Source of the DNA: a virus
Lineage: Duplodnaviria > Caudoviricetes
Direction: 5' to 3' (one strand)
Length of the DNA stretch: 64,000 bases
IMG/VR virus record: IMGVR_UViG_3300005365_000003
Location: 1-64,000 of that record
The notes beneath the pieces were generated by a model. It worked only from the letters and a program-made list of their open reading frames with translations. It searched no databases and was not told the origin of the DNA. Shown in pieces: positions 5,433 to 44,820 of the stretch (positions are counted from its first letter, which is position 1; every line of letters starts with the position of its first letter). The position numbers were made by a program, and so were the translations under genes.

Positions 5433-5942
5433 ATGACAATAAGCAGAACATGGGCAATGCCTAACAGTCTAACTTTCACAATTAAACCAATTAAAGAGTT
5501 AATTGAAAAGTATAAACAAGTTGCAGACGTTATAATTGATCCGTGGGCGAATAATTCAAAGATAGGAACCATTAGAAACGATCTCAATCCTGAAATGGAC
5601 ACCCAATTTCACTTAGATGCTCTTGAGTTCTTAAAATTACAGGAGCAAAATAGTGCTGATATTATCTTGTATGATCCACCTTACTCTATTTCTCAAGCAA
5701 CTGAAATGTATAAAAGTTTTGGAAAGGATAAATTAGAATTGCATGTATCTAATATGGGTTATTGGGGTGGATGCAAAAGCGAAGTAGCTAGAATACTTAA
5801 ACCAGGAGGAATTTGTATTATTTGTGGGTGGAGTAGTAATGGAATAGGATTGAGTCGCGGGTTTGAAATGATTGAAATATTGTTAGTTCCACATGGAGGA
5901 TCTAAAAATGATACTATTGTTACGGTAGAGAAAAAACTATGA
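5433..5942 (+). CDS. Small adenine-specific (amino) DNA methyltransferase
   Basis: IIDPWAN, HLDALEFL, catalytic DPPY, ARILKPGG. Confidence 0.8.
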   Translation: MTISRTWAMPNSLTFTIKPIKELIEKYKQVADVIIDPWANNSKIGTIRNDLNPEMDTQFHLDALEFLKLQEQNSADIILYDPPYSISQATEMYKSFGKDKLELHVSNMGYWGGCKSEVARILKPGGICIICGWSSNGIGLSRGFEMIEILLVPHGGSKNDTIVTVEKKL

Positions 5943-6993: not shown

Positions 6994-7170
6994 ATGAAAG
7001 TAAAAATAAAAGAAGATTGCTGGAAATGGAACTGTATGTGGTATTGTACAGAGATAGGAAATATATTCAAAGTTGATAAGACTAATAAGTATAATTGTTA
7101 TGAAGTTACACGGAAGGGTAAAGGAAAGGGATGGTGGATAGCAAAAAATCATGTAAGTATTGTGAAATGA
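6994..7170 (+). CDS. Small hypothetical protein (58 aa), not in ORF track
   Basis: MKVKIKEDCWKWNCMWYCTEIGNIFKVD..; ATGA overlap at 7167-7170. Confidence 0.55.
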   Translation: MKVKIKEDCWKWNCMWYCTEIGNIFKVDKTNKYNCYEVTRKGKGKGWWIAKNHVSIVK

Positions 7171-7580
7171 AAATAATCGAAAATATAACACTTTACAGGT
7201 GTGATTTCTGCCGGAAAGAATTAAAGCGTAAACATGCAATGGTGTCACATGAATTACGCTGCCATGCTAATCCTGTTAATTATAGGCCATGCTTAGTTTG
7301 CGAACATCTTGAACGTAGGGATATTGAGTTTGATACAGGAATATCAGAATACAGTAACTATGAACCTATTTACAGGAAAGCTAGTACATTCTATTGCAAG
7401 GCAAAAGACATTTTACTGCTACATCCAAAGACGGCTTATTTTACCGGTCCCGGGGATTTAAGTTGTGTATTGTTAGATGGCAAAGAAACAAACCAGGAAC
7501 AAATGCCTATTTCGTGTGAGGTATTTGATAGCATTGTTTTTCAAGCTACAAAAGATGCAGAAGAACTTATTAAAAAATAA
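7167..7580 (+). CDS. Zinc-finger protein (C2H2-like), start revised to 7167
   Basis: YRCDFCRKELKRKHAMVSHELRCHANP plus further CxxC. Confidence 0.65.
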   Translation: MKIIENITLYRCDFCRKELKRKHAMVSHELRCHANPVNYRPCLVCEHLERRDIEFDTGISEYSNYEPIYRKASTFYCKAKDILLLHPKTAYFTGPGDLSCVLLDGKETNQEQMPISCEVFDSIVFQATKDAEELIKK

Positions 7581-7582
7581 TA

Positions 7583-7613
7583 TTTGGATGGAAGGAAATA
7601 AGTTTTAATTTTG
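7583..7613 (+). promoter_or_regulatory. Bacteroidota-type housekeeping promoter
   Basis: TTTG (7583-7586), 19 bp spacer, TAATTTTG (7606-7613). Confidence 0.7.
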
Positions 7614-7619
7614 CTTTAA

Positions 7620-7740
7620 CTAAATATGTGTGCGCATATATTAGGGTCAAACAAAGAACGTTATTAGTCTGAGAAATCAGACGGTAAGTTTAGCCCGAAG
7701 ATTCAAGCGCACACTTGAAGCCTTCGGGTTTCTTATTTTA
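7620..7740 (+). ncRNA. Structured leader/small RNA ending in a terminator-like hairpin
   Basis: gtctga-GAAA-tcagac (7667-7682); agcccgaag..ttcaag-cgcaca-cttgaa..cttcgggtt + TCTTATTTT; 7628-7635 complementary to 7707-7714. Confidence 0.55.
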
Positions 7741-7743
7741 GGA

Positions 7744-8055
7744 CCGTATGGTTGGACGCGATTATCAAATTGATATGGCATCTACGATCATACGGAATGC
7801 GTTATAGGGGGATTCTGTATAAAGCGCAAGCGATAGTACTAAGGTAGAGGTCGCATGACAGACGGAGGGTGTATTTCCTTCGACAAGCAACTACCAGGCC
7901 ACCGGGCATACACGTTTCGCGGTGGATGCTTACAGCACTGGCAATGCCCGACGAACAGGCGTTAGATTAGAGGCTGGATGCAAGGTAATACCTAATGCTT
8001 TTCGAGGCTTTAGGAGTAATATTACTTTGCCCCAGCCCAAACAAAGGCCCTCTAA
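7744..8055 (+). ncRNA. Candidate multi-helix structured RNA (~310 nt)
   Basis: Helices 7744-7750/7789-7795, 7899-7904/7920-7925 and a long rod 7967-8055 capped by UUCG; no long ORF. Confidence 0.55.
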
Positions 8056-8081
8056 ACAATCGTTAACTAAATATATAAAAC

Positions 8082-8471
8082 ATGAGTAAAAGAAACAGAG
8101 GAAGATGGAGAGATAGGGTAAGAAAAAGAATAAATTATTTCAATAGAAAACTTGAAAAACCGTGTCGAGATGTTTTTCAATGTCAAGTAAATGAAATTTT
8201 CAATCAAACAGGAATATATTTTCTCCGACAAGGGAAAGAAATAGTTTACATAGGGCAAAGCGAATGCGTGATCTCAAGAATAGTAAATCACGTCCGCGAT
8301 ACTTCAAAAATATTCGACAGCTTTTCTTATTCACTATGTGATAAGACCGAGACTCAAAGAAGGCAAATAGAAGCATTCTTAATAAAACGCCACCAACCTA
8401 AATATAACGTTAAGTGTAAGGAGGAGCCAACTAGCGGAATTAGGGTTACATATCAGGCTATGTCCAAATAA
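8082..8471 (+). CDS. GIY-YIG nuclease with Arg-rich N-terminus
   Basis: GIYFLRQGKEIVYIGQS..SRIVNH..IEAFLIKRHQPKYN. Confidence 0.85.
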   Translation: MSKRNRGRWRDRVRKRINYFNRKLEKPCRDVFQCQVNEIFNQTGIYFLRQGKEIVYIGQSECVISRIVNHVRDTSKIFDSFSYSLCDKTETQRRQIEAFLIKRHQPKYNVKCKEEPTSGIRVTYQAMSK

Positions 8472-8529
8472 TAAACACCTGTTCATAACTATTTACCGCA
8501 TTTATAATGCTGCATATTAAAAACATCCC

Positions 8530-8537
8530 TATATTTG
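8530..8537 (+). promoter_or_regulatory. Promoter -7 element
   Basis: TATATTTG, 7 bp upstream of ATG 8545. Confidence 0.65.
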
Positions 8538-8544
8538 TATCATT

Positions 8545-8730
8545 ATGAGTAAGAGAAAAAAAAGAAAAGGTCGCCCACCGCTTCCTAAAGGAGAAAAAAA
8601 AAGTGAGATAAGATTTTTTGCCCACGACAAACATATAGACAAATGCGGTGGCGAAGAATCCGCCAAACAAATAGCCCTATCATCAATCGAAAACTTCGAA
8701 CAAAACCTGGCTGCTAACGCTAAAAAATGA
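8545..8730 (+). CDS. Small DNA-binding protein (RHH/CopG-like)
   Basis: KRKGRPPLPKGEKKSEIRFFAH. Confidence 0.6.
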   Translation: MSKRKKRKGRPPLPKGEKKSEIRFFAHDKHIDKCGGEESAKQIALSSIENFEQNLAANAKK

Positions 8731-9341: not shown

Positions 9342-9499
9342 CTAAAAGAGCTGTAATCTCTAAATCAGAGAAAAAATTCAATCGCCCCAAAGGAAGTGCA
9401 TATTTTATATACACTGAGCAAGTTGTGTATAAAACACAAAATCCTGATGGAACTTTTACATCTCAAACGAGGCATGAACTAGATAAATCAAGAAGATAA
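9338..9499 (+). CDS. Small hypothetical protein (53 aa), not in ORF track
   Basis: MTKRAVISKSEKKFNRPKGSAYFIY..; ATGA overlap. Confidence 0.45.
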   Translation: MTKRAVISKSEKKFNRPKGSAYFIYTEQVVYKTQNPDGTFTSQTRHELDKSRR

Positions 9500-9504
9500 T
9501 ACGT

Positions 9505-9840
9505 ATGAGTGCTCTTTATCCTAACTGCCTCAAAGCCTACTGGGACTGGTATCGTGCGAAATTCCGCATGGAGCCACAGTTTGACGGGTCCGACGGGAAG
9601 GGGCTGAAGGCGATAGTTAAGTATTTGGACTTGCAGGAGGCCGGGGAAGAGAATGTGTTAAAGAATTTCACGTCACTACTGAATAAATACGACTCTTGGA
9701 CACCATTTCACCGGTCACAGACAAGACTAAGGCAGATAAGCGCAAACATATCAAACATAATAATTCATCTCAATGCAGGACAACAATCAGCAATTACAGC
9801 CGAAGGACTTATTGACGCATTCCGTAAAGCTACTCAATAA
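9505..9840 (+). CDS. Hypothetical protein, possible replication-initiator-like domain
   Basis: All-helical ORF paired with the next gene; position in replication block. Confidence 0.45.
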   Translation: MSALYPNCLKAYWDWYRAKFRMEPQFDGSDGKGLKAIVKYLDLQEAGEENVLKNFTSLLNKYDSWTPFHRSQTRLRQISANISNIIIHLNAGQQSAITAEGLIDAFRKATQ

Positions 9841-10519
9841 CTACCTGTCTGTTTATAGGCAAGGAGGATTGGTGGTTACGGGTAAAGAAAAAGTTACGCT
9901 GGCTGCTGTGCTGGCAGAAGGGTCGTTTGATGTTAAGAATATGGTAAAAAGAGATCAGCTAGATACTATTGCAGCATTTTACCTTATGGCACTGAAAGAA
10001 TTATGGTCCAACACATCAAATACTTTCACAAATGAATCTATAACAAGCTGCTCACTACTTATCATAAACCGTTATGGCGACTGGCATCCTAAAGAACTGA
10101 TTATAGTGCTACGTAATGGCCTGGCTGGGGCTTATGGAAAGACATTCGGAAAGGTAAATACTGATGAAGTAATGAGGTGGGCGAAGGAGTATGATGAAGT
10201 GGAGAGGACTAGATATTTTGAACTAACAAATAACAAAAAAGATGAACTAGGCTGGAATGAAATGAATCCAGATTTGCTAAAAAAAATATTTAATCCATCA
10301 AAATATGCTTCTATAAAGCCCACTTATGTCCCAAGAGAACGCACTACCCAAGAACAACTCATACAGGATTGGATGAAAGAGTTTGACAAGATGTCTTTTG
10401 AGGCTAATGGAAAACGGTGGGTTGAAGTTCCTGGGGTTGATGGTGGTGGCCATCCTGAAACATTCACTGTCGATATTGAAGAATTTTTGCAGTATAAAAT
10501 AAACCAACAAACCCAATGA
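9773..10519 (+). CDS. DUF6633-like putative replisome organiser/loader partner
   Basis: ELIIVLRNGLAGAYGKTFGKVNTDEVMRWAKEYDEVER. Confidence 0.45.
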   Translation: MQDNNQQLQPKDLLTHSVKLLNNYLSVYRQGGLVVTGKEKVTLAAVLAEGSFDVKNMVKRDQLDTIAAFYLMALKELWSNTSNTFTNESITSCSLLIINRYGDWHPKELIIVLRNGLAGAYGKTFGKVNTDEVMRWAKEYDEVERTRYFELTNNKKDELGWNEMNPDLLKKIFNPSKYASIKPTYVPRERTTQEQLIQDWMKEFDKMSFEANGKRWVEVPGVDGGGHPETFTVDIEEFLQYKINQQTQ

Positions 10520-10695
10520 CCGAACAAGAATACATAAACGTCCGCGAACTTAGCCAAGTAGTTGCTGCCAGGGAAATGCTTCGCGGGATAGTTCCAGCCA
10601 ATTCTAGGGTTATATCGTCAGATGAGCTTAAAGAAGTAGGTGAGATACTTGGAAGGTGGCAAGATGAATTGTTTAAATTAATTAAAACAGAATAA
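10516..10695 (+). CDS. Small hypothetical protein (59 aa), not in ORF track
   Basis: MTEQEYINVRELSQVVAAREMLRG.. Confidence 0.55.
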   Translation: MTEQEYINVRELSQVVAAREMLRGIVPANSRVISSDELKEVGEILGRWQDELFKLIKTE

Positions 10696-11081
10696 TGGAA
10701 ATAGAAATTATAATAGGCATTTTGTTTATCCATTGGATTGGCGACTTTGTGTTTCAGTCTGATTGGCAAGCTAAAAATAAAAGTAAAAACAATATAGCTC
10801 TTACGGCTCATGTTGCATCGTATAGTTTTTGTTGGCTTGTAGCATGCTCGATGTCTGTTTTACTAACAGATGAAAGCATACTGATAATACTTTTTCCTGT
10901 AATTACTTTTGTGCTCCATTGGATAACTGACTATTTTACTAGTCGTATAAACTCAAAATTATACGCCGAAAATAAAATACATTATTTTTTCGTATCTATT
11001 GGTTTCGATCAGATATTGCATTACGTACAACTTATTTTAACATATAAACTTTTAACATATAAACTTTTAACAACTATATGA
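10695..11081 (+). CDS. DUF3307 membrane protein
   Basis: HWIGDFVFQ, H..SY, HWITD, GFDQILH motifs. Confidence 0.85.
   Translation: MEIEIIIGILFIHWIGDFVFQSDWQAKNKSKNNIALTAHVASYSFCWLVACSMSVLLTDESILIILFPVITFVLHWITDYFTSRINSKLYAENKIHYFFVSIGFDQILHYVQLILTYKLLTYKLLTTI
11035..11072 (+). repeat. 15-bp tandem repeat (about 2.5 copies) at the DUF3307 3' end
   Basis: ttttaacatataaac x2 plus ttttaaca; encodes LTYKL-LTYKL. Confidence 0.85.
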
Positions 11082-11422
11082 TGACAACAACAAATTTCAA
11101 AGTAGGACAGAAGGTGGTGTGTGTTAGGTCTGGCGAGGCTAGTGATAGAAAACGAACAGAGACTGTTTTTGTTTACAAGGAAAAACAGTATACGATAAAA
11201 GATTTCGGGTATTTGGAAGAATCGGATGTAAATATTGCTTGTCATTGGGTTGAACTTGAAGAAGTGGAGGGAAAATGGGGTTCAAATAGATTCCGTCCGC
11301 TTGCCTACTCGCACTCCATCTCAGCAACCCTAGCGTCCACTTGTCTAAAAGAAACACAAATCGAAACCTCCGACACTCCTATAAAGGATCCAAGTCCGAA
11401 ACCCGAAAAAGAAATAGCATGA
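11078..11422 (+). CDS. Hypothetical protein
   Basis: FKVGQKVVCV start (SH3-like accessory protein). Confidence 0.6.
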   Translation: MMTTTNFKVGQKVVCVRSGEASDRKRTETVFVYKEKQYTIKDFGYLEESDVNIACHWVELEEVEGKWGSNRFRPLAYSHSISATLASTCLKETQIETSDTPIKDPSPKPEKEIA

Positions 11423-11661
11423 AATACACATTTGCAACAAATATTAACGGCAAAGGATTGACGGGCGTGATTGATGTTGAATTGGGCTCAATAGTTTGTT
11501 ATTGTTCAGAGAAGCAGTCAAAGTTAGTGTTGGAAAAGTTAAATCTATGCGAAGTGTTAACCAAAACCATCTCCGACCTCAACGCCCACATCTCCCGCTT
11601 GGGTGCTGAGAATGAGAAGCTGATGGAGATAAATGCGCAATTAAGAAAGGAAAGTATATGA
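11419..11661 (+). CDS. Hypothetical coiled-coil protein (start revised to 11419)
   Basis: ATGA overlaps at both ends. Confidence 0.55.
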   Translation: MKYTFATNINGKGLTGVIDVELGSIVCYCSEKQSKLVLEKLNLCEVLTKTISDLNAHISRLGAENEKLMEINAQLRKESI

Positions 11662-12749
11662 ATATAATTTTTAAAGCACTTGTTGGAAGTCATGCTTATG
11701 GTACAAACATAGAAGGGTCTGATTTTGACATTAAAGGAGTTTATTTGCAATCCCCCGAAGAGGTTCTTGACTTAGGGTACAGGGAACAAATTACCGTAAA
11801 TAAAGATGAGGTTTATTATGAGTTAAGGCGTTTTATTGAGTTGTGTTGTACCGGAAATCCAACTATGCTAGAGCTTTTGTATACTCCGGATGATTGTATA
11901 AAAGAGATTCATCCTTGCTTTATGAGGCTTATTGAAAATAGAGAAAAATTCTTATCCAAATCATGCAAGTTTTCTTTCGGTGGGTATGCCTACAGTCAGA
12001 TAGGAAAAGCTAAGGGGTTAAATAAAAAGATGAATTGGGAAAAAGATAAAGTAGAAAGAAAGACTATTCTTGATTTTTGCTATATACTTACTCCTATGGG
12101 ATCACAACCTATACGCGAATGGCTCAGGATTCAAAGAGGAGAAGCGACACGGCAGGAATATTATGGCGTATCAAAAGTGCCTAATTGCAGAGATATGTTT
12201 TATATTTATCCTAAAGATCAGGAAGGATTAGAGTATCATGGACTTTGCAATTCCGACGAAAGTTCAAATGAATTGCGCATGAGCAGCATTCCGGTAAATC
12301 AAATCGCTAAATGTACAGCAATGTCATACAATAAAGATGGCTATATTGAGCATTGCAAAGATTATAATCAATACCAGGTTTGGCTAAAAGAGCGCAACAC
12401 TCAGAGGTATGTTGATATTGACGAGCACGGACAGAAAATTGATGGCAAGAATTTACTTCATTGCTATAGGCTTCTTGAAACTGGAGTGGAGATAGCAAAG
12501 TTTCATACAATAAATGTACGCAGGCCAAATGCCGCTTATCTTATTGAAATACGTAAGGGGAAGCATAATCTTGAAACTCTATTGAAGCAATCAGAAAGCA
12601 AAATGGAAGAATTAAATAAAGAATTTGATTTATCTACCCTTCCGGACAAAGCGGATCGCGGATTTTTTATGTCATTAATGCCTAAAATAAGAAAAGAATA
12701 TGAATCTACCAGAAATATATCTTTGCGATATAGACGGCACTCTTGCTGA
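11658..12749 (+). CDS. Pol-beta-superfamily nucleotidyltransferase (Nuc-transf/RlaP-like, PF10127)
   Basis: VGSHAYGTNIEGSDFDIKGVY; GNPTMLELLY; KNLLHCYRLL. Confidence 0.85.
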   Translation: MNIIFKALVGSHAYGTNIEGSDFDIKGVYLQSPEEVLDLGYREQITVNKDEVYYELRRFIELCCTGNPTMLELLYTPDDCIKEIHPCFMRLIENREKFLSKSCKFSFGGYAYSQIGKAKGLNKKMNWEKDKVERKTILDFCYILTPMGSQPIREWLRIQRGEATRQEYYGVSKVPNCRDMFYIYPKDQEGLEYHGLCNSDESSNELRMSSIPVNQIAKCTAMSYNKDGYIEHCKDYNQYQVWLKERNTQRYVDIDEHGQKIDGKNLLHCYRLLETGVEIAKFHTINVRRPNAAYLIEIRKGKHNLETLLKQSESKMEELNKEFDLSTLPDKADRGFFMSLMPKIRKEYESTRNISLRYRRHSC

Positions 12750-13125
12750 TTTTAAACATCACCGGGGGCCGTTTGATGAACATAAGGTATTAGGAGACAA
12801 ACCGCTTCCTACTGTAAGGATTATAAATTCTTTAATTAGAGATGGAAATAGAATTATTTTCTTTTCTGGAAGGACAAGTAATTGTCATAAAGATTCTTGC
12901 GAGTGGATAAAAAATCATACTGGTGAATACAATCCTGAATTATATATGAGGGAGCCAAAAGATAACCGTTCAGATGATATAGTGAAAGAGGAGATGTACG
13001 ATAAGTGGATTCGAGGTAAATATGAAGTGATAGGCGTATTTGATGATCGATTGAAAGTTTGCAGAATGTGGAATAAGTTAGGATTATTTGTATTCAACTG
13101 CAATCAAGGATTAATAGAATTTTAA
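12700..13125 (+). CDS. HAD phosphatase, T4 PseT (PNK) 3'-phosphatase-domain-like
   Basis: DIDGTLA, FFSGR, LYMR..DNRSDDIVK, VFDDR. Confidence 0.85.
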   Translation: MNLPEIYLCDIDGTLADFKHHRGPFDEHKVLGDKPLPTVRIINSLIRDGNRIIFFSGRTSNCHKDSCEWIKNHTGEYNPELYMREPKDNRSDDIVKEEMYDKWIRGKYEVIGVFDDRLKVCRMWNKLGLFVFNCNQGLIEF

Positions 13126-34297: not shown

Positions 34298-36465
34298 TGC
34301 TTATACCTAAGTATAATAATTTCCAACAAGAGAGAAAAATTGGTGAGCATGTTGTTTTTTTACCAGACCCACCTGATATTAAAAAAATAGCCTACCGGGA
34401 TTTACCACAAGATCAACAATTTTTCAGAAGAGTTTATTTACCTAATGATTGGAGTTCCCTTTCAAAAGAGGATAAGAATAAATTTGCTAATGAGCAGTGG
34501 GATATAAGGGGGCGGGAGGGAGAAAAGGGTGAAGGGTTTTGGTTTATGAATAACGGTAATTTAGAGTGGATGTCCCCAACGCATCACTTTTATTCTAATT
34601 GGTGGAGGATAGGAAAAGTAAAGATTCCTAAAGAATATGTGCTTGATCCAAGAGACATTTATTATCCATTCTTTACAGATGCAGATAGAGACTGGCACTA
34701 CCTAGCAGATGATTGTTATTGGAATAAGAATTGCGGAGGATTATTCACTATTGAGTTCAGGAGGGGGGGCAAAACGTACCGCTGCGCTTCTTATCAATAC
34801 GAAAAAGTTTCTAAGACGCATGATGCTAAAGGCGGAACTCAGTCACGGGATGATGCTGATAGCTACAACGTATTTGAAAAAATAATTTACGGATGGAGAA
34901 ATCTTCCTCCATTTTTCAAGCCGGTAGATACCGGGAATAACAACCCTCTTACTTCATTGATATTCGATGAACCTAAAAAGATAAGTACAAAAAATCTTCA
35001 AAAGACTTATTCTGACATTCTACACAGCTGGATAGATTACGGAAATGCCAGTGAAGGTTATTATGATGGTAAGGAGCAAATCATAAATATTCAGGATGAG
35101 ATTGGAAAAATTAATAACAAGCGAGGAATTGATCTTATAGAGAGAATACGGGTTGTTATCGAGTGCTGCTTTATTATGGGAGAGAAGGTGGGAATGGTTC
35201 TTGGAACAACAACTGTAGAAGAACAAGAAAAGGCTGGCGGAAAGCAGGCAAAGGATTTGTATACCAGGTGTACTACTATAGACGAAGAGGCTAGCAGCCT
35301 TCCAAATATATTCCCTACAGGAAAGGCATTGGATGAATTTGGCTTCACTCAGTCTAAAATGAAGAGATACTTTAGGTCATCTAATTACGGTTACCTGGGT
35401 TCTGATATTAACGGAAAATGCTTGGTTGACAGATATGGATATTCTAGGATTAAAGACGCTACAGAGCATTTTTTAAAGAGAAGGAAGAATAAAAAAGGAG
35501 CTGAATTGTCTTCAGAAAAAAGAAAGTTTCCACTTAAAATTGAAGATTGCTGGGTGAGTGATTCTAAAAAGTCGGTTTATGATACTACTAGAATTGAAGA
35601 GCAAATAGAATATAATCAGACTATTCCTAATAGTATGATTGTTACAGGTAATTTTCAATGGAAGGATGGAATAAAAGATACTACTGTAGAATGGAATCCA
35701 AGTCCTGAAGGAATGTGGAAAATTTCATGGCTCCCTAAATTTGAAGACAGAAATAAATTTGATATAGTTTATGGTAAAAAGTCTCCAAAAAACACAGAAA
35801 CAGGATGCTTTGGCTTGGACCCTTATGATAATAAAATAACTGTAGATAATCGTAAGTCGGACGCTGCTTCGTACGGCTTTAGAAAATTTGATCCAATGTA
35901 TCCAAATGAATCAGGAATATTTATTTCTGAATATGTTAATAGACCAAAACTTCCAGAGATCATGTGGGAGCAGATGATAATGCAGGCGGTTTTTTTTGGA
36001 TGGGAGATTTTAATTGAGAATAATCGCATAGGAACTATTAATTACTTTAGGATGCGTGGATTTGAGAAGTATTTAATGAAAAGGCCAGAAGAGACTAAAA
36101 ATGAATCCGGTTATGGATCAAAGAAAGAAGAAGAATATGGGATCGCTCTTTCAGGGGAAGACGCCAGGATGGCGCTTATTTATGCAACAGAAAGCCACAT
36201 TGCATCTAATGTAGGAATGATAGAAAAAGAAAATCAAACCCCTTATATGGGAAAATGTTATTTTGATAAACTGTTAAATCAATGGCTTGATTTCGATTTC
36301 GATAAAAAATGGACCGCCTTCGATTGCATGGTGGGAGCTGGTCTTGCATTACTTGGGTCACGAAAACATATTCCAAAAAAAATTGATAACAAGCCAATAC
36401 AATTATTTCAGCAATATAGAGCAAGCGGAACTGGATATGTGGCTATAAAAAACAATACAAAATAA
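34297..36465 (+). CDS. terL: Terminase large subunit
   Basis: Walker A-like EFRRGGKT, QDEIGK Walker B, nuclease GLDPYD, EILIENN, FDCMVGAGLAL. Confidence 0.9.
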   Translation: MLIPKYNNFQQERKIGEHVVFLPDPPDIKKIAYRDLPQDQQFFRRVYLPNDWSSLSKEDKNKFANEQWDIRGREGEKGEGFWFMNNGNLEWMSPTHHFYSNWWRIGKVKIPKEYVLDPRDIYYPFFTDADRDWHYLADDCYWNKNCGGLFTIEFRRGGKTYRCASYQYEKVSKTHDAKGGTQSRDDADSYNVFEKIIYGWRNLPPFFKPVDTGNNNPLTSLIFDEPKKISTKNLQKTYSDILHSWIDYGNASEGYYDGKEQIINIQDEIGKINNKRGIDLIERIRVVIECCFIMGEKVGMVLGTTTVEEQEKAGGKQAKDLYTRCTTIDEEASSLPNIFPTGKALDEFGFTQSKMKRYFRSSNYGYLGSDINGKCLVDRYGYSRIKDATEHFLKRRKNKKGAELSSEKRKFPLKIEDCWVSDSKKSVYDTTRIEEQIEYNQTIPNSMIVTGNFQWKDGIKDTTVEWNPSPEGMWKISWLPKFEDRNKFDIVYGKKSPKNTETGCFGLDPYDNKITVDNRKSDAASYGFRKFDPMYPNESGIFISEYVNRPKLPEIMWEQMIMQAVFFGWEILIENNRIGTINYFRMRGFEKYLMKRPEETKNESGYGSKKEEEYGIALSGEDARMALIYATESHIASNVGMIEKENQTPYMGKCYFDKLLNQWLDFDFDKKWTAFDCMVGAGLALLGSRKHIPKKIDNKPIQLFQQYRASGTGYVAIKNNTK

Positions 36466-36495
36466 AAACCCCGGATATTTACTTCCAGGGCTTTT
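36465..36495. terminator. Bidirectional intrinsic terminator
   Basis: aaaaccccgga-tatttact-tccagggctttt between convergent genes. Confidence 0.7.
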
Positions 36496-36516
36496 ATTGA
36501 ATGCTATGCTTTAATT

Positions 36517-36723
36517 TTACTCTCTCGAAGCCGTTTCGTCAATCCAATTTTCAACATCGGCATGCCACACTTCTTTTAATCGTTCTTCAACTGAAAGTGA
36601 ACTTAAGGCCACGTTTCCATTCTTATCGGGAACGTTCCAATCTTCAAATCGGGCTTTTCTTTTTTCAGACAACAAGTAAGAGCCAAAACTTACAAGGTCT
36701 TTTCTGTTAAAATAAGTAACCAT
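36517..36723 (-). CDS. Hypothetical protein
   Basis: MVTYFNRKDLVSFGSYLLS..VWHADVENW; minus-strand TATATTTG at 36798-36805. Confidence 0.7.
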   Translation of the reverse strand: MVTYFNRKDLVSFGSYLLSEKRKARFEDWNVPDKNGNVALSSLSVEERLKEVWHADVENWIDETASRE

Positions 36724-36838
36724 TTTGTTTTATTTTTTGATTTTGCCTACTCTTGAAAGGATTTTCGGCTTCCTCCTGCGTATATTATGCGCTTATTCAA
36801 ATATATTAAATATTTTTTTGTTCAATTAAATTATTTTA

Positions 36839-36846
36839 TACATTTG
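36839..36846 (+). promoter_or_regulatory. Promoter -7 element driving the non-coding region
   Basis: TACATTTG. Confidence 0.65.
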
Positions 36847-36852
36847 TATTAC

Positions 36853-37045
36853 CGAATCGAAATAGAAACGAGCAATGCAGGAGTGCAACTCGCCATTGAT
36901 AGATCGGTCGACAAACAGTCGTTCTATGACATACACAAACTTCCTTGAAAAGTTTGAAGTAAAAATACGGGAGGGGCAACTTTCCCTCCATATTTGGCCC
37001 TTCATAAATCTATTCAAGGTGGATTTTTGAGGGGCTTCTTATTTT
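36853..37045 (+). ncRNA. Candidate structured small RNA ending in a terminator-like hairpin
   Basis: Hairpins 36869-36892, 36899-36927, 36936-36956, 36969-36986 (GCAA loop), 36997-37035 + TTCTTATTTT. Confidence 0.55.
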
Positions 37046-37050
37046 TAGTA

Positions 37051-37259
37051 AGACAGTCCTGGCACTTCAGGAGAAACACCGGTTGGATCAGGTAATTGTA
37101 GTTTTCAGAAATACTGAAAACAAAGAATTGTATCCGCATTTAAAAACACCATTTTCACAATGGTCATTTATAATAGTTTTGGCATAATCAAAACGTTCTA
37201 TTAGGGGCTCCCAGCCACCACACGTGATGTTTTCTTATTCATAAACGAGCAAACTGTCT
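37051..37259 (+). ncRNA. Second candidate structured element (multi-branch)
   Basis: Closing helix agacagt/actgtct; hairpins 37057-37072, 37101-37121, 37148-37164, 37176-37194. Confidence 0.35.
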
Positions 37260-37336
37260 ATGTTTGTTGTGATAAAAACAAAAAAAAGAAATATTATAAA
37301 TTATTCCTACCTTTGAAGAATTAACGCAAATTCTCA

Positions 37337-39703
37337 ATGGCAGAATATGACAACAAGGCTATAATTGGTTTCCCTGACCCACTAGCTAATCCTGAAGTAA
37401 AAATAAGCTATAAATACGGACTTGCATACGCCAAAGCTATGTGGTCCGCTTACACCAGAAATCAACTATGGTGGAACGGAAGGAAGCAGCGCGATATAAT
37501 CAACAGAAAATACGCTGAAGGGCTAGAATCAATCGAGAAGTATAAGGATAGGCTAGATATGCAGGGAGATACATCATGGCTTAACCTTGATTTCAATCCG
37601 GTAACACGTATAGCTAATTTGGTCGATAATGTCGTAGGAAGGCTTATGGCCCAGGATTACAAAATACAGTGTAATCCTATTGATCCGGCGTCAAGAGCTA
37701 AGATTGACGATGCTAGAGATGCTATGAGGGCTAATATGCTTCTAAAGCCAATAAACGATGTAGTAGAACCACAGACAGGTATTTCGCTTATTCCTAAAGA
37801 TAAACCCATTCCAGAATCAGACGAAGAGGCGGATCTTTTTTTTCAGCTGAATCATAAAGCAGGGGAGTCTATTGCTATGGAAGAGGGGTTGGCAGCGGTG
37901 TTTTACAATACGGAATTTGAAGATACGAAGAGAAAAGTTATACGGGATGCAGTGGTGCTTAAAAAACTTTCTATTCATGTTAAGTACGATGAGAATTACA
38001 ACATCATCCCGGAATACGCCGATCCTGTTGACCTTGTTTATCCTTATTCAAAATATGAAGATTTCAGAAATGTTCCTTATGTAGGGAAAATCACAAAATA
38101 TACCATAGGTCAGCTTGCTCAGATGACAAATGAGTTTGATGAACCTACATTATGGAAGATAGCAAACGAACAGGCCGGTAAGAATAACAATCCTAACTGG
38201 CAATGGGGAAATACGTATGAGGGATATTATTGGGATAACCAGGTATATGCTGGGCGTCCGTATGATGATTTTAATGTAAGCGTGATGGAATTTTATTTTC
38301 TGTGCGCGGATACACAGAAGTATGTTAAGAAAGATACTTCAGGAGATAGGTTCTATTTCGATAAAAAAAATCCTAACTACAAAATAGATAAAAGCAGCAA
38401 TACAGAGGCGAGTAAGAAAAAAGAAATGCTCGAAAGAGCTGTTCAATATTTATATGAAGGGAAATGGGTTATAGGAACTGAATATATGTATGGGTATAAA
38501 AAATGCTCAAATATTCCGCGTGAAAGAAAGCTAGGTGCTTATTCTCCAAAAGCAGAGCTTCCCATCATAATGATTTATCCGGATATTTATGACATGCAGA
38601 ATAAGTCACTCGTAGAACGCCTTATCCCACATGAAGATCAGATAAATCTTATCCATCAGAAGCAGCAGCAGTTTTTGATAAAAGCAAAACCTCCAGGAGT
38701 AAAGATTGATTTAGAGGGAATGGAAAACATCACGGTTGCTATGGGTAGCGGGTCTATGACATCTATCGACATAACGAAGATGTATGAGCAGACGGGTAAT
38801 TATATTTTCAGAAGCAAGGACAAGGCAGGAAACATTATCAATAGCTCTGTTATTGAGCCGCTGGATAATGGAATAGGAAGAGGATTTATGGAACTATTCG
38901 AGGCATACAATCAGGAGCTACAGAAGATGAATGATGTGATCGGGTTTAACTCAGCTACAGATGGTTCCACTCCGGATCCAAAGAGTCTTGTTGGGGTACA
39001 GAAGCTATCGCTAAATGCAACCAATTCAGCGCTGCGTCCACTTAACTTTGCTTATATACGACTTATTGAGAGAGTATCTAAAAGGCTTACTCTCATGATA
39101 CAGGATAGTATTGAATTTGAGAATCAAGCTTTTATTAATTCTATAGGAAATCAAGCAACTAGTCTTATAAAATTAGGGAAGGATATTGCTATGAATGAAT
39201 TTGGTATCAAGGTAGAGTTATTGCCGGATGAGGAAGAGAGAGCGCAAATAAATCAGGATATTTCTATTGCTCTTGCTAATAAAGAGATCACGATGGCAGA
39301 TGCTATAATGGTTCGCCAGGTTCTTAGGCAGAATACCAAACTTGCAGAGCAATTGCTTGTGCTTAGGGAGAAAAAGAATATTGAAAATGCTAAGGCGGAG
39401 GCGGCTAATAACGCTAAGATTAACGGAGAGGAGCAGACTAAGGCGGCTCAGGCAGCAGCAGAGGCAAATACCCAATCTGCTTTAGCTATAGAAGAAGCCA
39501 AGAGAAAGACTATGCAATTTGAATATGAGTTGAAGTCAAAACTTTCAGCACAAGAACATCTGCAAAAAATGCCAGAGATTGAATTAGCTAATCAAGGTAA
39601 AATTGAAATCGCTCATAAGAACGCGGAGGGTGGAATTGTTAAGGCAGGTATTGCAGCACATGCTAGCATGAGTAAGGCAAGTGATAATAAGGAGGCGGCT
39701 TAA
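37337..39703 (+). CDS. Portal protein
   Basis: 788 aa between TerL and scaffold/capsid; crAss-like-type portal features (SWLNLDFNPV, SLVERLIP); TACCTTTG at 37308-37315. Confidence 0.8.
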   Translation: MAEYDNKAIIGFPDPLANPEVKISYKYGLAYAKAMWSAYTRNQLWWNGRKQRDIINRKYAEGLESIEKYKDRLDMQGDTSWLNLDFNPVTRIANLVDNVVGRLMAQDYKIQCNPIDPASRAKIDDARDAMRANMLLKPINDVVEPQTGISLIPKDKPIPESDEEADLFFQLNHKAGESIAMEEGLAAVFYNTEFEDTKRKVIRDAVVLKKLSIHVKYDENYNIIPEYADPVDLVYPYSKYEDFRNVPYVGKITKYTIGQLAQMTNEFDEPTLWKIANEQAGKNNNPNWQWGNTYEGYYWDNQVYAGRPYDDFNVSVMEFYFLCADTQKYVKKDTSGDRFYFDKKNPNYKIDKSSNTEASKKKEMLERAVQYLYEGKWVIGTEYMYGYKKCSNIPRERKLGAYSPKAELPIIMIYPDIYDMQNKSLVERLIPHEDQINLIHQKQQQFLIKAKPPGVKIDLEGMENITVAMGSGSMTSIDITKMYEQTGNYIFRSKDKAGNIINSSVIEPLDNGIGRGFMELFEAYNQELQKMNDVIGFNSATDGSTPDPKSLVGVQKLSLNATNSALRPLNFAYIRLIERVSKRLTLMIQDSIEFENQAFINSIGNQATSLIKLGKDIAMNEFGIKVELLPDEEERAQINQDISIALANKEITMADAIMVRQVLRQNTKLAEQLLVLREKKNIENAKAEAANNAKINGEEQTKAAQAAAEANTQSALAIEEAKRKTMQFEYELKSKLSAQEHLQKMPEIELANQGKIEIAHKNAEGGIVKAGIAAHASMSKASDNKEAA

Positions 39704-43564: not shown

Positions 43565-44707
43565 ATGGAAACTACACTTGCAGAAGAAAAAAGGCGCTAC
43601 GGAACAATCCAGGATTTTAATCTTAAAACATCAAATCACTGGGAAAAATTGTACGTGTTCGTATTGAAATGTCAAAACGCTACTCCATCAGTTGAGGGGC
43701 GACATTATCCAAATAATTATTCCCTTAAATTGGAAGGAAAAATATTTGACAGACACGCTAAAGATAAAAACGGAAAAGTATCTCCACGTACAAGAACCAT
43801 AAGAGTTGTGCAGGGAGAGGTTAGTATATACAAAGATGAACAAACAGAAGACGGTCAGAAGCTTGAGCCAATCCGGGTAGAATTTTCTAAGGATGGCGTT
43901 AAGATAGTTGAAGCCAGGGAAGAACTGGTACTTGAATATATGCTTCGATCAAATCTTAATGAAACAAATCCAGAAAGAGATGTAAATGTTCGCCCTATTT
44001 ATGGTCTTCTTGATTTGAAAACAGGTCTTCAAAATGAGATGGAAAAAGACATGAATGAATCGAAAGCGGCAAACTGGTGTCATACAATAGATTTTAAGTA
44101 TCTAATTCGTTATGCAAGAGTTCTTGGAGTTGATACAACAAAAGATCCGGATGAGATTCGTTACGCTATGAGATATTTAGCCAAACTTGATCCAAAGAAG
44201 TTCAATAATGGCCTTGAAAATAAGCTAACACTTCGCAAGTTTGATGTACTTCAGGCTAGTGATGATGGGCTTGTTAAGATTGATTTGAGGTCAAATGCTA
44301 TTTATTGGGAGAATGGAAATCTGATTACACATGCTCCGATAGGAAAGAGTCCGGTGGATCACTTTGTTGATCTCAGCATGTCGGATTCGGCAATGGATCT
44401 TGCTTACCGAACTATGGCGCAACAGGTTAATGCAAACAATGAGGACATAAAGGTTGAAATTCCTGTTGCTAAAGTTAATATTTCTGCGCAACCTCAAGCC
44501 GGGACAACAGCCATAGCTGTTGATGTAAATACTCCTCTGGCTGATCTGGTTGATGCAGCTATAAAATCAGGAGTGGCAGTTTATCAGAAGCCGTGGATCA
44601 TGTATAATGGAAAAAAGTTTATGGGCAAGAATAAATTTGCTGTTGCTTTAGAGAATGATGCTTTACTGAAAGATGCTCTAATAAAAGCATGTTCGGCAGG
44701 AAAGTAA
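43565..44707 (+). CDS. Conserved post-capsid hypothetical protein
   Basis: IRVVQGEVSIYKDEQ..LVLEYMLRSNLN; position after MCP. Confidence 0.7.
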   Translation: METTLAEEKRRYGTIQDFNLKTSNHWEKLYVFVLKCQNATPSVEGRHYPNNYSLKLEGKIFDRHAKDKNGKVSPRTRTIRVVQGEVSIYKDEQTEDGQKLEPIRVEFSKDGVKIVEAREELVLEYMLRSNLNETNPERDVNVRPIYGLLDLKTGLQNEMEKDMNESKAANWCHTIDFKYLIRYARVLGVDTTKDPDEIRYAMRYLAKLDPKKFNNGLENKLTLRKFDVLQASDDGLVKIDLRSNAIYWENGNLITHAPIGKSPVDHFVDLSMSDSAMDLAYRTMAQQVNANNEDIKVEIPVAKVNISAQPQAGTTAIAVDVNTPLADLVDAAIKSGVAVYQKPWIMYNGKKFMGKNKFAVALENDALLKDALIKACSAGK

Positions 44708-44728
44708 TTTTTTTATAGTAGCATTTAT

Positions 44729-44773
44729 AAAAGCCCATTGTAGTGAATTGATAAGTTTTCTATAATGGGCTTT
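44729..44773 (+). terminator. Intrinsic terminator
   Basis: aaagcccattgtag..ctataatgggcttt. Confidence 0.75.
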
Positions 44774-44820
44774 ATTTATATATAAAAAAGAAATACCTTT
44801 ACGCTGTAAAAAAAATAAAA

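Follow-up and report, generated by a model that had tools for sequence, protein, structure and literature searches.

Homing-endonuclease genes of T-even phages are kept in check by terminators at their 5' ends, by RNA hairpins and by autorepression (Edgell, Gibb and Belfort 2010, PMC2988022). The mobE and segF genes have 5' terminators, while hairpins that hide the ribosome site have been described for I-TevI, segB and mobE (PMC2988022). Here we describe a locus that invites comparison with these systems. It lies at positions 7583-8471 of the first 64 kb (64,000 nucleotides (nt), hereafter the window) of a 74.7-kb IMG/VR virus record with direct terminal repeats (IMGVR_UViG_3300005365_000003), where a promoter reads into a long folded stretch that ends at a small GIY-YIG nuclease gene. 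We take the virus to be an uncultured Flavobacteriia-type phage of ~75 kb and not a T4-like one. The locus is read here, tentatively, as a self-contained, free-standing homing-endonuclease-type GIY-YIG cassette with a long folded cis-acting 5' leader, a plausible account that still falls a little short of probable. The leader most likely controls the amount of nuclease made. It is a single orphan sequence and would exert a kind of control that is already known by means of an RNA that has no relative in the collections searched.

Like the T-even examples, this would be a selfish nuclease gene restrained by a 5' terminator and RNA structure, with read-through needed for expression and possibly an operator over the promoter. 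The leader here, however, is ~460 nt long and carries a six-helix domain, whereas T4 makes do with a single hairpin or terminator, and its terminator is found in the untranslated leader rather than in the coding region. The host would be a member of the Bacteroidota without Shine-Dalgarno sites, the start region is open instead of sequestered, and the case made here is based on sequence only.

Three other systems bear comparison. In having a large folded RNA just ahead of a compact nuclease gene, the locus recalls the HEARO or omega RNA that accompanies IscB, but the nuclease here is a GIY-YIG and not a RuvC/HNH enzyme, neither a guide segment nor transposon ends are present, and members of the nuclease family do not share the RNA; HEARO/omega-RNA was rejected as an identity since no Rfam match was obtained and the RNA is not linked to the nuclease across homologues. 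An arginine-rich peptide together with a GNRA-type hairpin upstream of a terminator resembles lambda N and boxB, a resemblance only, as the arginine-rich protein is encoded downstream of the very terminator to be overcome, no boxA-like element is present, and the arginine tail is not conserved in homologues. Lastly, at ~0.4 kb, guanine-cytosine (GC)-rich, paired at its ends and with candidate pseudoknots, the RNA is reminiscent of the large ornate phage RNAs GOLLD (RF01998) and ROOL (RF03087), but it has no Rfam match and carries boxes at both ends beside start codons.

Promoter, terminator and fold of the leader

Bacteroidota sigma-A promoters follow the consensus TTTG-N19-TAnnTTTG. An exact match to this pattern stands between the upstream stop codon and the folded stretch (Table 1), where a full promoter had been pointed out in an initial reading of the DNA made without database searches (hereafter the sequence-only reading), and the geometry of the consensus predicts a transcription start near 7618-7620. 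That reading had also seen no long open reading frame (ORF) in the region, rightly so: the stop density of 7614-8081 (7-11 per forward frame) rules it out as coding sequence; within 7620-8081 the forward frames contain 7, 11 and 7 stops, and the longest internal ORF has 55 amino acids (aa). A candidate leader ORF of 13 codons overlaps the 5' hairpin and stops at the foot of the GAAA hairpin. Since no TAnnTTTG box occurs on the + strand between 7613 and 8530, and no terminator lies between the 320-nt domain that makes up the 3' part of the leader and the nuclease ORF, the nuclease would be transcribed solely through the folded leader.

An intrinsic terminator is found ~120 nt downstream of the promoter, inside the RNA that the sequence-only reading had drawn as one promoter-driven structured molecule of ~440 nt. 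The + strand-specific fold next to a promoter was borne out, but with a terminator in its interior the 440-nt form can exist only as a read-through product. Because the terminator is interposed between the promoter and the 320-nt domain, both this domain and the nuclease gene are reachable only through read-through. The top of the 5' hairpin, GUGUGCGC (7628-7635), is exactly complementary to GCGCACAC (7707-7714) in the apical region of the terminator, giving a duplex of 8 nt and -16.4 kcal/mol; an 8-nt complement between 5' hairpin and terminator loop was reached in 28 of 5000 shuffles (0.6%). The parts that make up a kissing-loop terminator leader, namely promoter, 5' hairpin, terminator hairpin with U-tract and loop-to-loop complementarity, are all present. 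Elsewhere in the same phage, the portal gene is preceded by a second promoter-leader-terminator unit, whose leader ends with the same terminator tail, TTCTTATTTT, at 37036-37045. The two leaders are alignable only at the promoter and this tail.

The GC content of the leader (7614-8081, ~460 nt) is 0.46-0.51, vs ~0.33 in both flanks. Its + strand folds to a minimum free energy (MFE) of -153.8 kcal/mol (z -5.77 against shuffles), compared with -131.1 kcal/mol (z -3.25) for the - strand, and its parts are also unusually stable when folded alone, with z -4.96 for the 5' 125 nt and -4.63 for the 3' domain (7741-8060, 320 nt). In a GC-corrected scan of every 300-nt segment of the 64 kb on both strands (638 segments per ranking), the four segments over 7501-8100 rank 3, 2, 23 and 24 on the + strand, in the top 4%, and are ordinary on the - strand. 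The mean pair probabilities of the helices are mostly 0.85-1.0, and 19 of the 148 pairs are G-U. The strand specificity of the fold and the G-U pairs argue for an RNA read from the + strand and not for a DNA structure.

All helices listed in the sequence-only reading recur in the MFE fold or within 1 kcal/mol of it; its variant of helix H4 (7899-7904/7920-7925), for example, comes to -25.3 vs -26.3 kcal/mol for the MFE form. The complementarity that it had noticed between the loops GUGUAU (7869-7874) and AUACAC (7908-7913) is likewise present, and a 6-nt match arose in 138 of 5000 loop shuffles (2.8%). The H2 region can pair in other ways, 7801-7811 with 8049-8058 and 7814-7818 with 7858-7862. 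As the helix that closes the leader spans the terminator, it can form solely in read-through transcripts; when the 5' part is absent, the 3' closing segment can pair with 7801-7811 instead.

These features could work together as follows. The host-type promoter (7583-7613) would start the RNA near 7618, and the first 120 nt would form the 5' hairpin, the GAAA hairpin and the terminator, with the terminator loop and the top of the 5' hairpin complementary to each other. At 7740 most transcripts would come to a stop, which would keep nuclease expression low or dependent on a read-through factor. Read-through would add the GC-rich six-helix domain (7741-8060), whereupon the helix 7643-7648/8046-8051 would close the whole leader into one compact body while the last 30 A/U-rich bases remain open for the ribosome. 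The 320-nt domain might contribute to transcript stability, offer a platform for a read-through factor, or act as a switch that uses the two partners of 8046-8058. That termination actually occurs, that the leader sets the dose or timing of the nuclease, and that the 320-nt domain has any role at all are points that we infer from this arrangement.

Table 1. Features of the nuclease cassette and its immediate neighbours (coordinates in the window)
Feature	Coordinates	Strand	Description
Upstream ORF	7131-7580	+	Own stop, 40 nt before the RNA, promoter in between
Promoter	7583-7613	+	TTTG 7583-7586 (-33), 19-nt spacer, TAATTTTG 7606-7613 (-7); exact pattern match
Box A copy 1, TTAACTAAATAT	7616-7627	+	At predicted transcript 5' end; last two bases begin ATG 7626
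5' hairpin	7623-7642	+	Pair probability 0.87; top GUGUGCGC at 7628-7635
Candidate leader ORF, 13 codons (MCAHILGSNKERY)	7626-7667	+	Reading frame alone
Closing helix, 5' strand AGGGUC	7643-7648	+	Predicted to pair with GGCCCU 8046-8051, probability 0.96
Box B copy 1, CAAACAAAG (9-mer)	7648-7656	+	Inner side of closing helix
Three-tier hairpin with GAAA tetraloop cap	7656-7691	+	Core 7667-7682; pair probability 0.80-0.99
Intrinsic terminator	7692-7740	+	9-bp GC-rich lower stem 7692-7700/7722-7730; upper stem 7702-7707/7714-7719; U-tract UUCUUAUUUU
Helix H1	7744-7795	+	Long hairpin, 11-bp base; pair probability 0.93
Helices H2a and H2b	7798-7854	+	H2a 7798-7828, H2b 7830-7854; MFE fold
Helix H3, CGGAGGG/UCCUUCG	7863-7882	+	Pair probability 0.97; GUGUAU 7869-7874 in loop
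Helix H4	7894-7941	+	Contains AUACAC 7908-7913, able to kiss H3 loop
Helix H5	7943-7963	+	Short hairpin; pair probability 0.89
Helix H6	7972-8037	+	66-nt rod, 26 pairs, UUCG cap; pair probability 0.90-1.00
Box B copy 2, CAAACAAAG	8038-8046	+	Adjoins 3' strand of closing helix
Closing helix, 3' strand GGCCCU	8046-8051	+	Partner 7643-7648
A/U-rich, largely unpaired stretch	8052-8081	+	Would serve as translation start region
Box A copy 2, TTAACTAAATAT	8063-8074	+	7 nt before nuclease ATG, in A/U-rich open stretch
GIY-YIG nuclease gene	8082-8471	+	129 aa: basic N-terminal helix (residues 3-24) and catalytic-domain-only core
ORF after nuclease gene	8545-8730	+	61-aa product

The nuclease, its homologues and the genomic setting

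Taken alone, the nuclease falls below the Pfam GIY-YIG cut-off (16.5 vs 22.4 bits). An exhaustive HMMER search with it recovered 1840 representative clusters. The catalytic residues Y46, Y56, G58, R66, H70, E97 and N109 are invariant in 36 aligned family members, 29 of which are matched by the Pfam GIY-YIG model at E <= 0.01, and the family profile matches the N-terminal domain of UvrC (1ycz) at E 2.8e-8. The AlphaFold2 model, with a mean predicted local distance difference test score of 87.7 (97-98 in the core), consists of the expected core and an N-terminal helix, and has the beta-beta-alpha-beta-alpha core fold of the GIY-YIG superfamily. Its best Foldseek matches are UvrC GIY-YIG domains (E 2.5e-5, target template modelling score 0.67), with R.Eco29kI, T4 EndoII and I-TevI lower. 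Conserved residues and model together identify the ORF as a true GIY-YIG nuclease, as the sequence-only reading had supposed.

The protein has no NUMOD, zinc-finger or helix-turn-helix module and, besides its core, only the basic N-terminal helix; we call it homing-endonuclease-type, and not a Seg protein, because a separate sequence-specific DNA-binding domain is absent. Nine arginines fall within its N-terminal 43 residues. The tails of homologues are basic, rich in lysine and glutamate and variable in length, some being almost absent, and arginine-richness is peculiar to the present protein. Its sequence cluster has one member on one contig. No relative of the family was found in 185,579 species genomes, and in GenBank phages the only homologues are distant ones that carry the annotation hypothetical protein. 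The gene also has the sporadic presence in an intergenic cassette that characterizes free-standing homing endonucleases, being absent from the closest relative phage, G001 (terminase 85% identical), which has neither the folded RNA nor the nuclease gene. An endonuclease-free (empty) allele was not found there, and the region surrounding the cassette is not conserved in G001.

The surroundings of nuclease homologues were compared at 22 distinct further phage loci from IMG/VR, a set that does not contain the closest homologues (P0002-P0007). Most of these loci are without such an RNA, and what fills the few long gaps upstream of the nuclease gene is either tRNAs or sequence that is unrelated; a GC-rich "gap" at one locus proved to code for a methyltransferase, and at another locus, L115, three tRNA genes (2053-2276) lie directly upstream of the GIY-YIG homologue. 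The linkage of RNA and GIY-YIG genes that the sequence-only reading had envisaged was not seen across these loci, and its idea of a conserved RNA-plus-nuclease module is not supported. Two loci have long ORF-free stretches upstream of the gene. In L111, from an unrelated AT-rich phage, a GIY-YIG homologue with 39% identity sits behind a 655-nt ORF-free stretch (1697-2350, z -6.8 to -8.3) with an early hairpin and U7 stop, paired ends and no Rfam family; this locus has no relatives in IMG/VR. In L156, the homologue follows a 620-nt ORF-free stretch (1243-1862, z -3.4) that is GC-rich in its 3' half and contains 25-nt tandem repeats (1413-1437 and 1450-1474, 88% identical), so that it looks more like iterons or operators than like an RNA of the present kind. 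Neither stretch resembles the present RNA by BLAST or covariance model. Because the leader in L111 is built alike and yet non-homologous, the association would recur as an architecture and not as a conserved RNA sequence.

The RNA itself had no relatives in any of the searches made. Distant-mode blastn found nothing in 50,697 GenBank phages, and blastn and nhmmer nothing in all fetched loci, the RNA being single-copy in its own genome. Metagenome contigs scanned for shared 18-mers yielded 24 stretches, all attributable to chance and none extending beyond 20 nt, and the same scan of the 185,579 species genomes gave 2 chance matches. A single-sequence covariance model of 7858-8040 had 0 matches in 42 fetched loci (in the window, itself only), in 4 loci with filters off and in 44 whole virus records. 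No Rfam family was obtained at the gathering score or at E 10, other than the chance-level isrK (E 1.6) and mir-610 (E 9.2), in keeping with the earlier description of the RNA as undescribed, and tRNA and tmRNA checks of the RNA were negative. Known riboswitch and ribozyme classes were rejected on the same grounds, there being no Rfam match beyond chance level. Polynucleobacter-1 (RF01718) has no match at E 10 in the region or the whole virus genome. A group I intron was likewise rejected: RF00028 has no match at E 10, the upstream ORF has its own stop with the promoter in between, and the genes on either side are not halves of a split gene, as a stand-alone homologue of the ORF that follows the nuclease is present in G001.

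Short words repeated around the leader are a further feature of the locus. Box A is a 12-mer with only two exact copies in the 64 kb, and a direct repeat of at least 12 nt appeared in 13 of 2000 block shuffles. In the leader of L111, a 14-nt word (12 of 14 positions identical) is found at the 5' end and again 6 nt before the ATG. The portal leader, for its part, has an exact 10-nt direct repeat, AAACGAGCAA, at 36866-36875 and 37243-37252; copy 1 overlaps an ATG near the transcript 5' end, and copy 2 precedes the start codon of an 18-codon ORF by 7 nt. Each of the three leaders thus has a word in two copies, one at the 5' end, in contact with the start codon of a small ORF, and one 6-7 nt before a later start codon. 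These words may stem from a duplication of the translation start region, from operator DNA, from insertion scars or from chance; as they are AT-rich and the cases are three, we attach no weight to them. An imperfect 11-nt inverted repeat, TAATATTTGGA and TCCAAATAATA (10/11), has its arms exactly at the borders of the cassette, 7578-7588 by the upstream stop codon and the promoter and 8463-8473 by the nuclease stop codon; with 8 comparable pairs in 1.4 kb, it may be due to chance.

The genes near the element are small, on the + strand and mostly of no known function. The ORFs 7131-7580 and 9773-10519 have no relatives in IMG/VR, and of the 22 relatives of the methyltransferase gene 5433-5942, 0 share its neighbourhood. 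The product of ORF 8545-8730 looks like a small DNA-binding protein, to judge from a basic N-terminal arm followed by what resembles the start of a ribbon-helix-helix. The starts of this ORF and the nuclease gene are alike (8082-8103 vs 8545-8566; 22 nt, 82% identical), encoding MSKRNRGR and MSKRKKRKGR. A promoter-like TATATTTG box at 8530 precedes ORF 8545, and as the box ends 7 nt before the ATG, the mRNA may be nearly leaderless.

Compared with G001, the structural half of the genome is common to both phages (60-85% protein identity) and the first 30 kb have almost nothing in common; the non-structural half is a hypervariable mosaic of unrelated small genes. The distance from terminase to portal gene is ~3.5 kb in G001 (L160, ~9480-13015) and 0.9 kb here (36465-37337), and this wider spacing points to an insertion in G001 where the present phage has its portal leader. 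A DUF805b RNA (RF02914) on the minus strand at 36744-36778 (43 bits, E 7e-9), the sole Rfam match above gathering score in the window, adjoins the promoter of the portal leader on its upstream side. The most over-folded 300-nt segment of the + strand in the 64 kb is 44501-44800 (GC 0.34, MFE -87.8 kcal/mol, GC-corrected z -4.07), which runs from the final part of ORF 43565-44707 into the interval that precedes ORF 44821, with a promoter-like TAAATTTG at 44632.

Weighing the explanations

A cis-acting leader is favoured because of the portal unit with the same terminator tail, the T4 precedents and the architecture of L111, and a cassette because the gene is sporadic, G001 being without both RNA and nuclease. 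Among the options raised in the sequence-only reading, a regulatory leader fits best with the internal terminator, the fold and the promoter. Several observations weigh against this account. The promoter match is convincing through its position, but it is statistically not significant alone, with 5 full matches observed in the 64 kb vs 2.85 expected by chance. A hairpin ahead of the U-tract is retained in either alternative fold of the first 125 nt, which makes for a gate, but no built-in anti-terminator is visible. At the 22 homologous loci, the nuclease genes mostly abut or overlap the upstream ORF or follow short gaps. As the searches found no relative of the RNA, none of its helices is backed by covariation, and there is no sign of selection on its sequence. 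Finally, to our knowledge, the 320-nt domain far exceeds any described endonuclease leader, and no function follows from its sequence.

A different history would have an independent phage non-coding RNA gene at whose 3' end a selfish GIY-YIG gene landed, riding on its transcription as a neighbour and not a partner. The RNA has its own promoter and is well defined, GC-rich and paired at its ends, as stable RNAs are, while the nuclease gene lacks a promoter of its own. Homing-endonuclease genes are known among structured RNA genes, for instance T4 segB, which is reportedly located in a tRNA cluster, and the L115 homologue that follows three tRNA genes; moreover, the second copy of the 12-mer is placed exactly at the junction of RNA and nuclease, as an insertion scar might be. 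However, the terminator is inside such a gene and none is present at its 3' end, relatives would be expected of an RNA gene that is useful and no other phage searched, G001 included, carries this one, and the different RNA in the same position in L111 better fits a cassette-specific leader. We consider this account unlikely, though one to be taken seriously.

It is also conceivable that the 3' domain is a relic or a product of chance, a foreign GC-rich piece brought along with the mobile cassette and devoid of function, with only the promoter and terminator of importance. Its want of relatives in the searches made, its location in the hypervariable non-structural half that shares almost nothing with G001, and the flanking exact repeats, as expected of a microhomology insertion, are in accord with this. 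A stability of z -4.6 for the domain alone, the strand asymmetry and the high pair probabilities are not, nor is the long-range helix that ties the domain to the leader upstream of the terminator, and such an origin seems improbable.

Still more doubtful is a signal at the DNA level, either twin 12-mers that act as repressor operators, one over the transcription start and the other before the ATG, or an RNA-primed replication origin, with DNA synthesis set off by transcription that runs from the promoter into the GC-rich stretch. I-TevI shuts down its own promoter by way of an operator that resembles its homing site (PMC2988022). The 12-mer occurs only twice in the 64 kb, copy 1 in the classic operator position over the predicted start; the next gene (8545-8730) looks like one for a small DNA-binding protein, and tandem repeats occupy the long gap before the GIY-YIG homologue in L156. 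Operators would account for the boxes but not for the 320-nt fold, which is strongly strand-specific and rich in G-U pairs and so speaks for RNA. As for an origin, iterons and an AT-rich unwinding element are lacking at the locus and the cumulative GC skew makes no turn at 7.6-8.1 kb; the single-stranded DNA origin entertained in the sequence-only reading found no positive support.

That reading had placed most emphasis on a ribonucleoprotein, an idea that can be spelled out as follows: the arginine-rich N-terminal helix would bind either the GAAA hairpin or the 320-nt domain, and the RNA subunit would provide target recognition or guide, activate or restrain the nuclease, which would then be the first RNA-dependent GIY-YIG enzyme. 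We regard this proposal as very improbable in either form. A co-transcribed RNA and gene, a GNRA-capped hairpin (7667-7682) of the kind bound by arginine-rich peptides, nine arginines in the N-terminal region and no recognisable DNA-binding domain beyond the basic helix (residues 3-24) are suggestive, but basic tails are equally expected for DNA binding, neither the arginine-richness nor any RNA is conserved with the nuclease family, the terminator precedes the large domain, no HEARO or other guide-RNA family matches, and the RNA, single-copy in its own genome, showed no guide-like stretch with a match at a second site.

A possible gating of a selfish gene by its leader

Phage homing-endonuclease genes need to be expressed enough to spread without harming the phage. 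If the cis-acting leader proposed here is real, Bacteroidota phages, which are without Shine-Dalgarno control, would meet this need with a far more elaborate device than T4, namely a promoter-proximal terminator gate with loop-loop pairing and a 320-nt body that closes onto the 5' end of the transcript. Together with the leaders of L111 and of the portal gene, it suggests a general design of transcription gating in such phages, and the locus would then be a compact candidate for a factor-dependent read-through switch.

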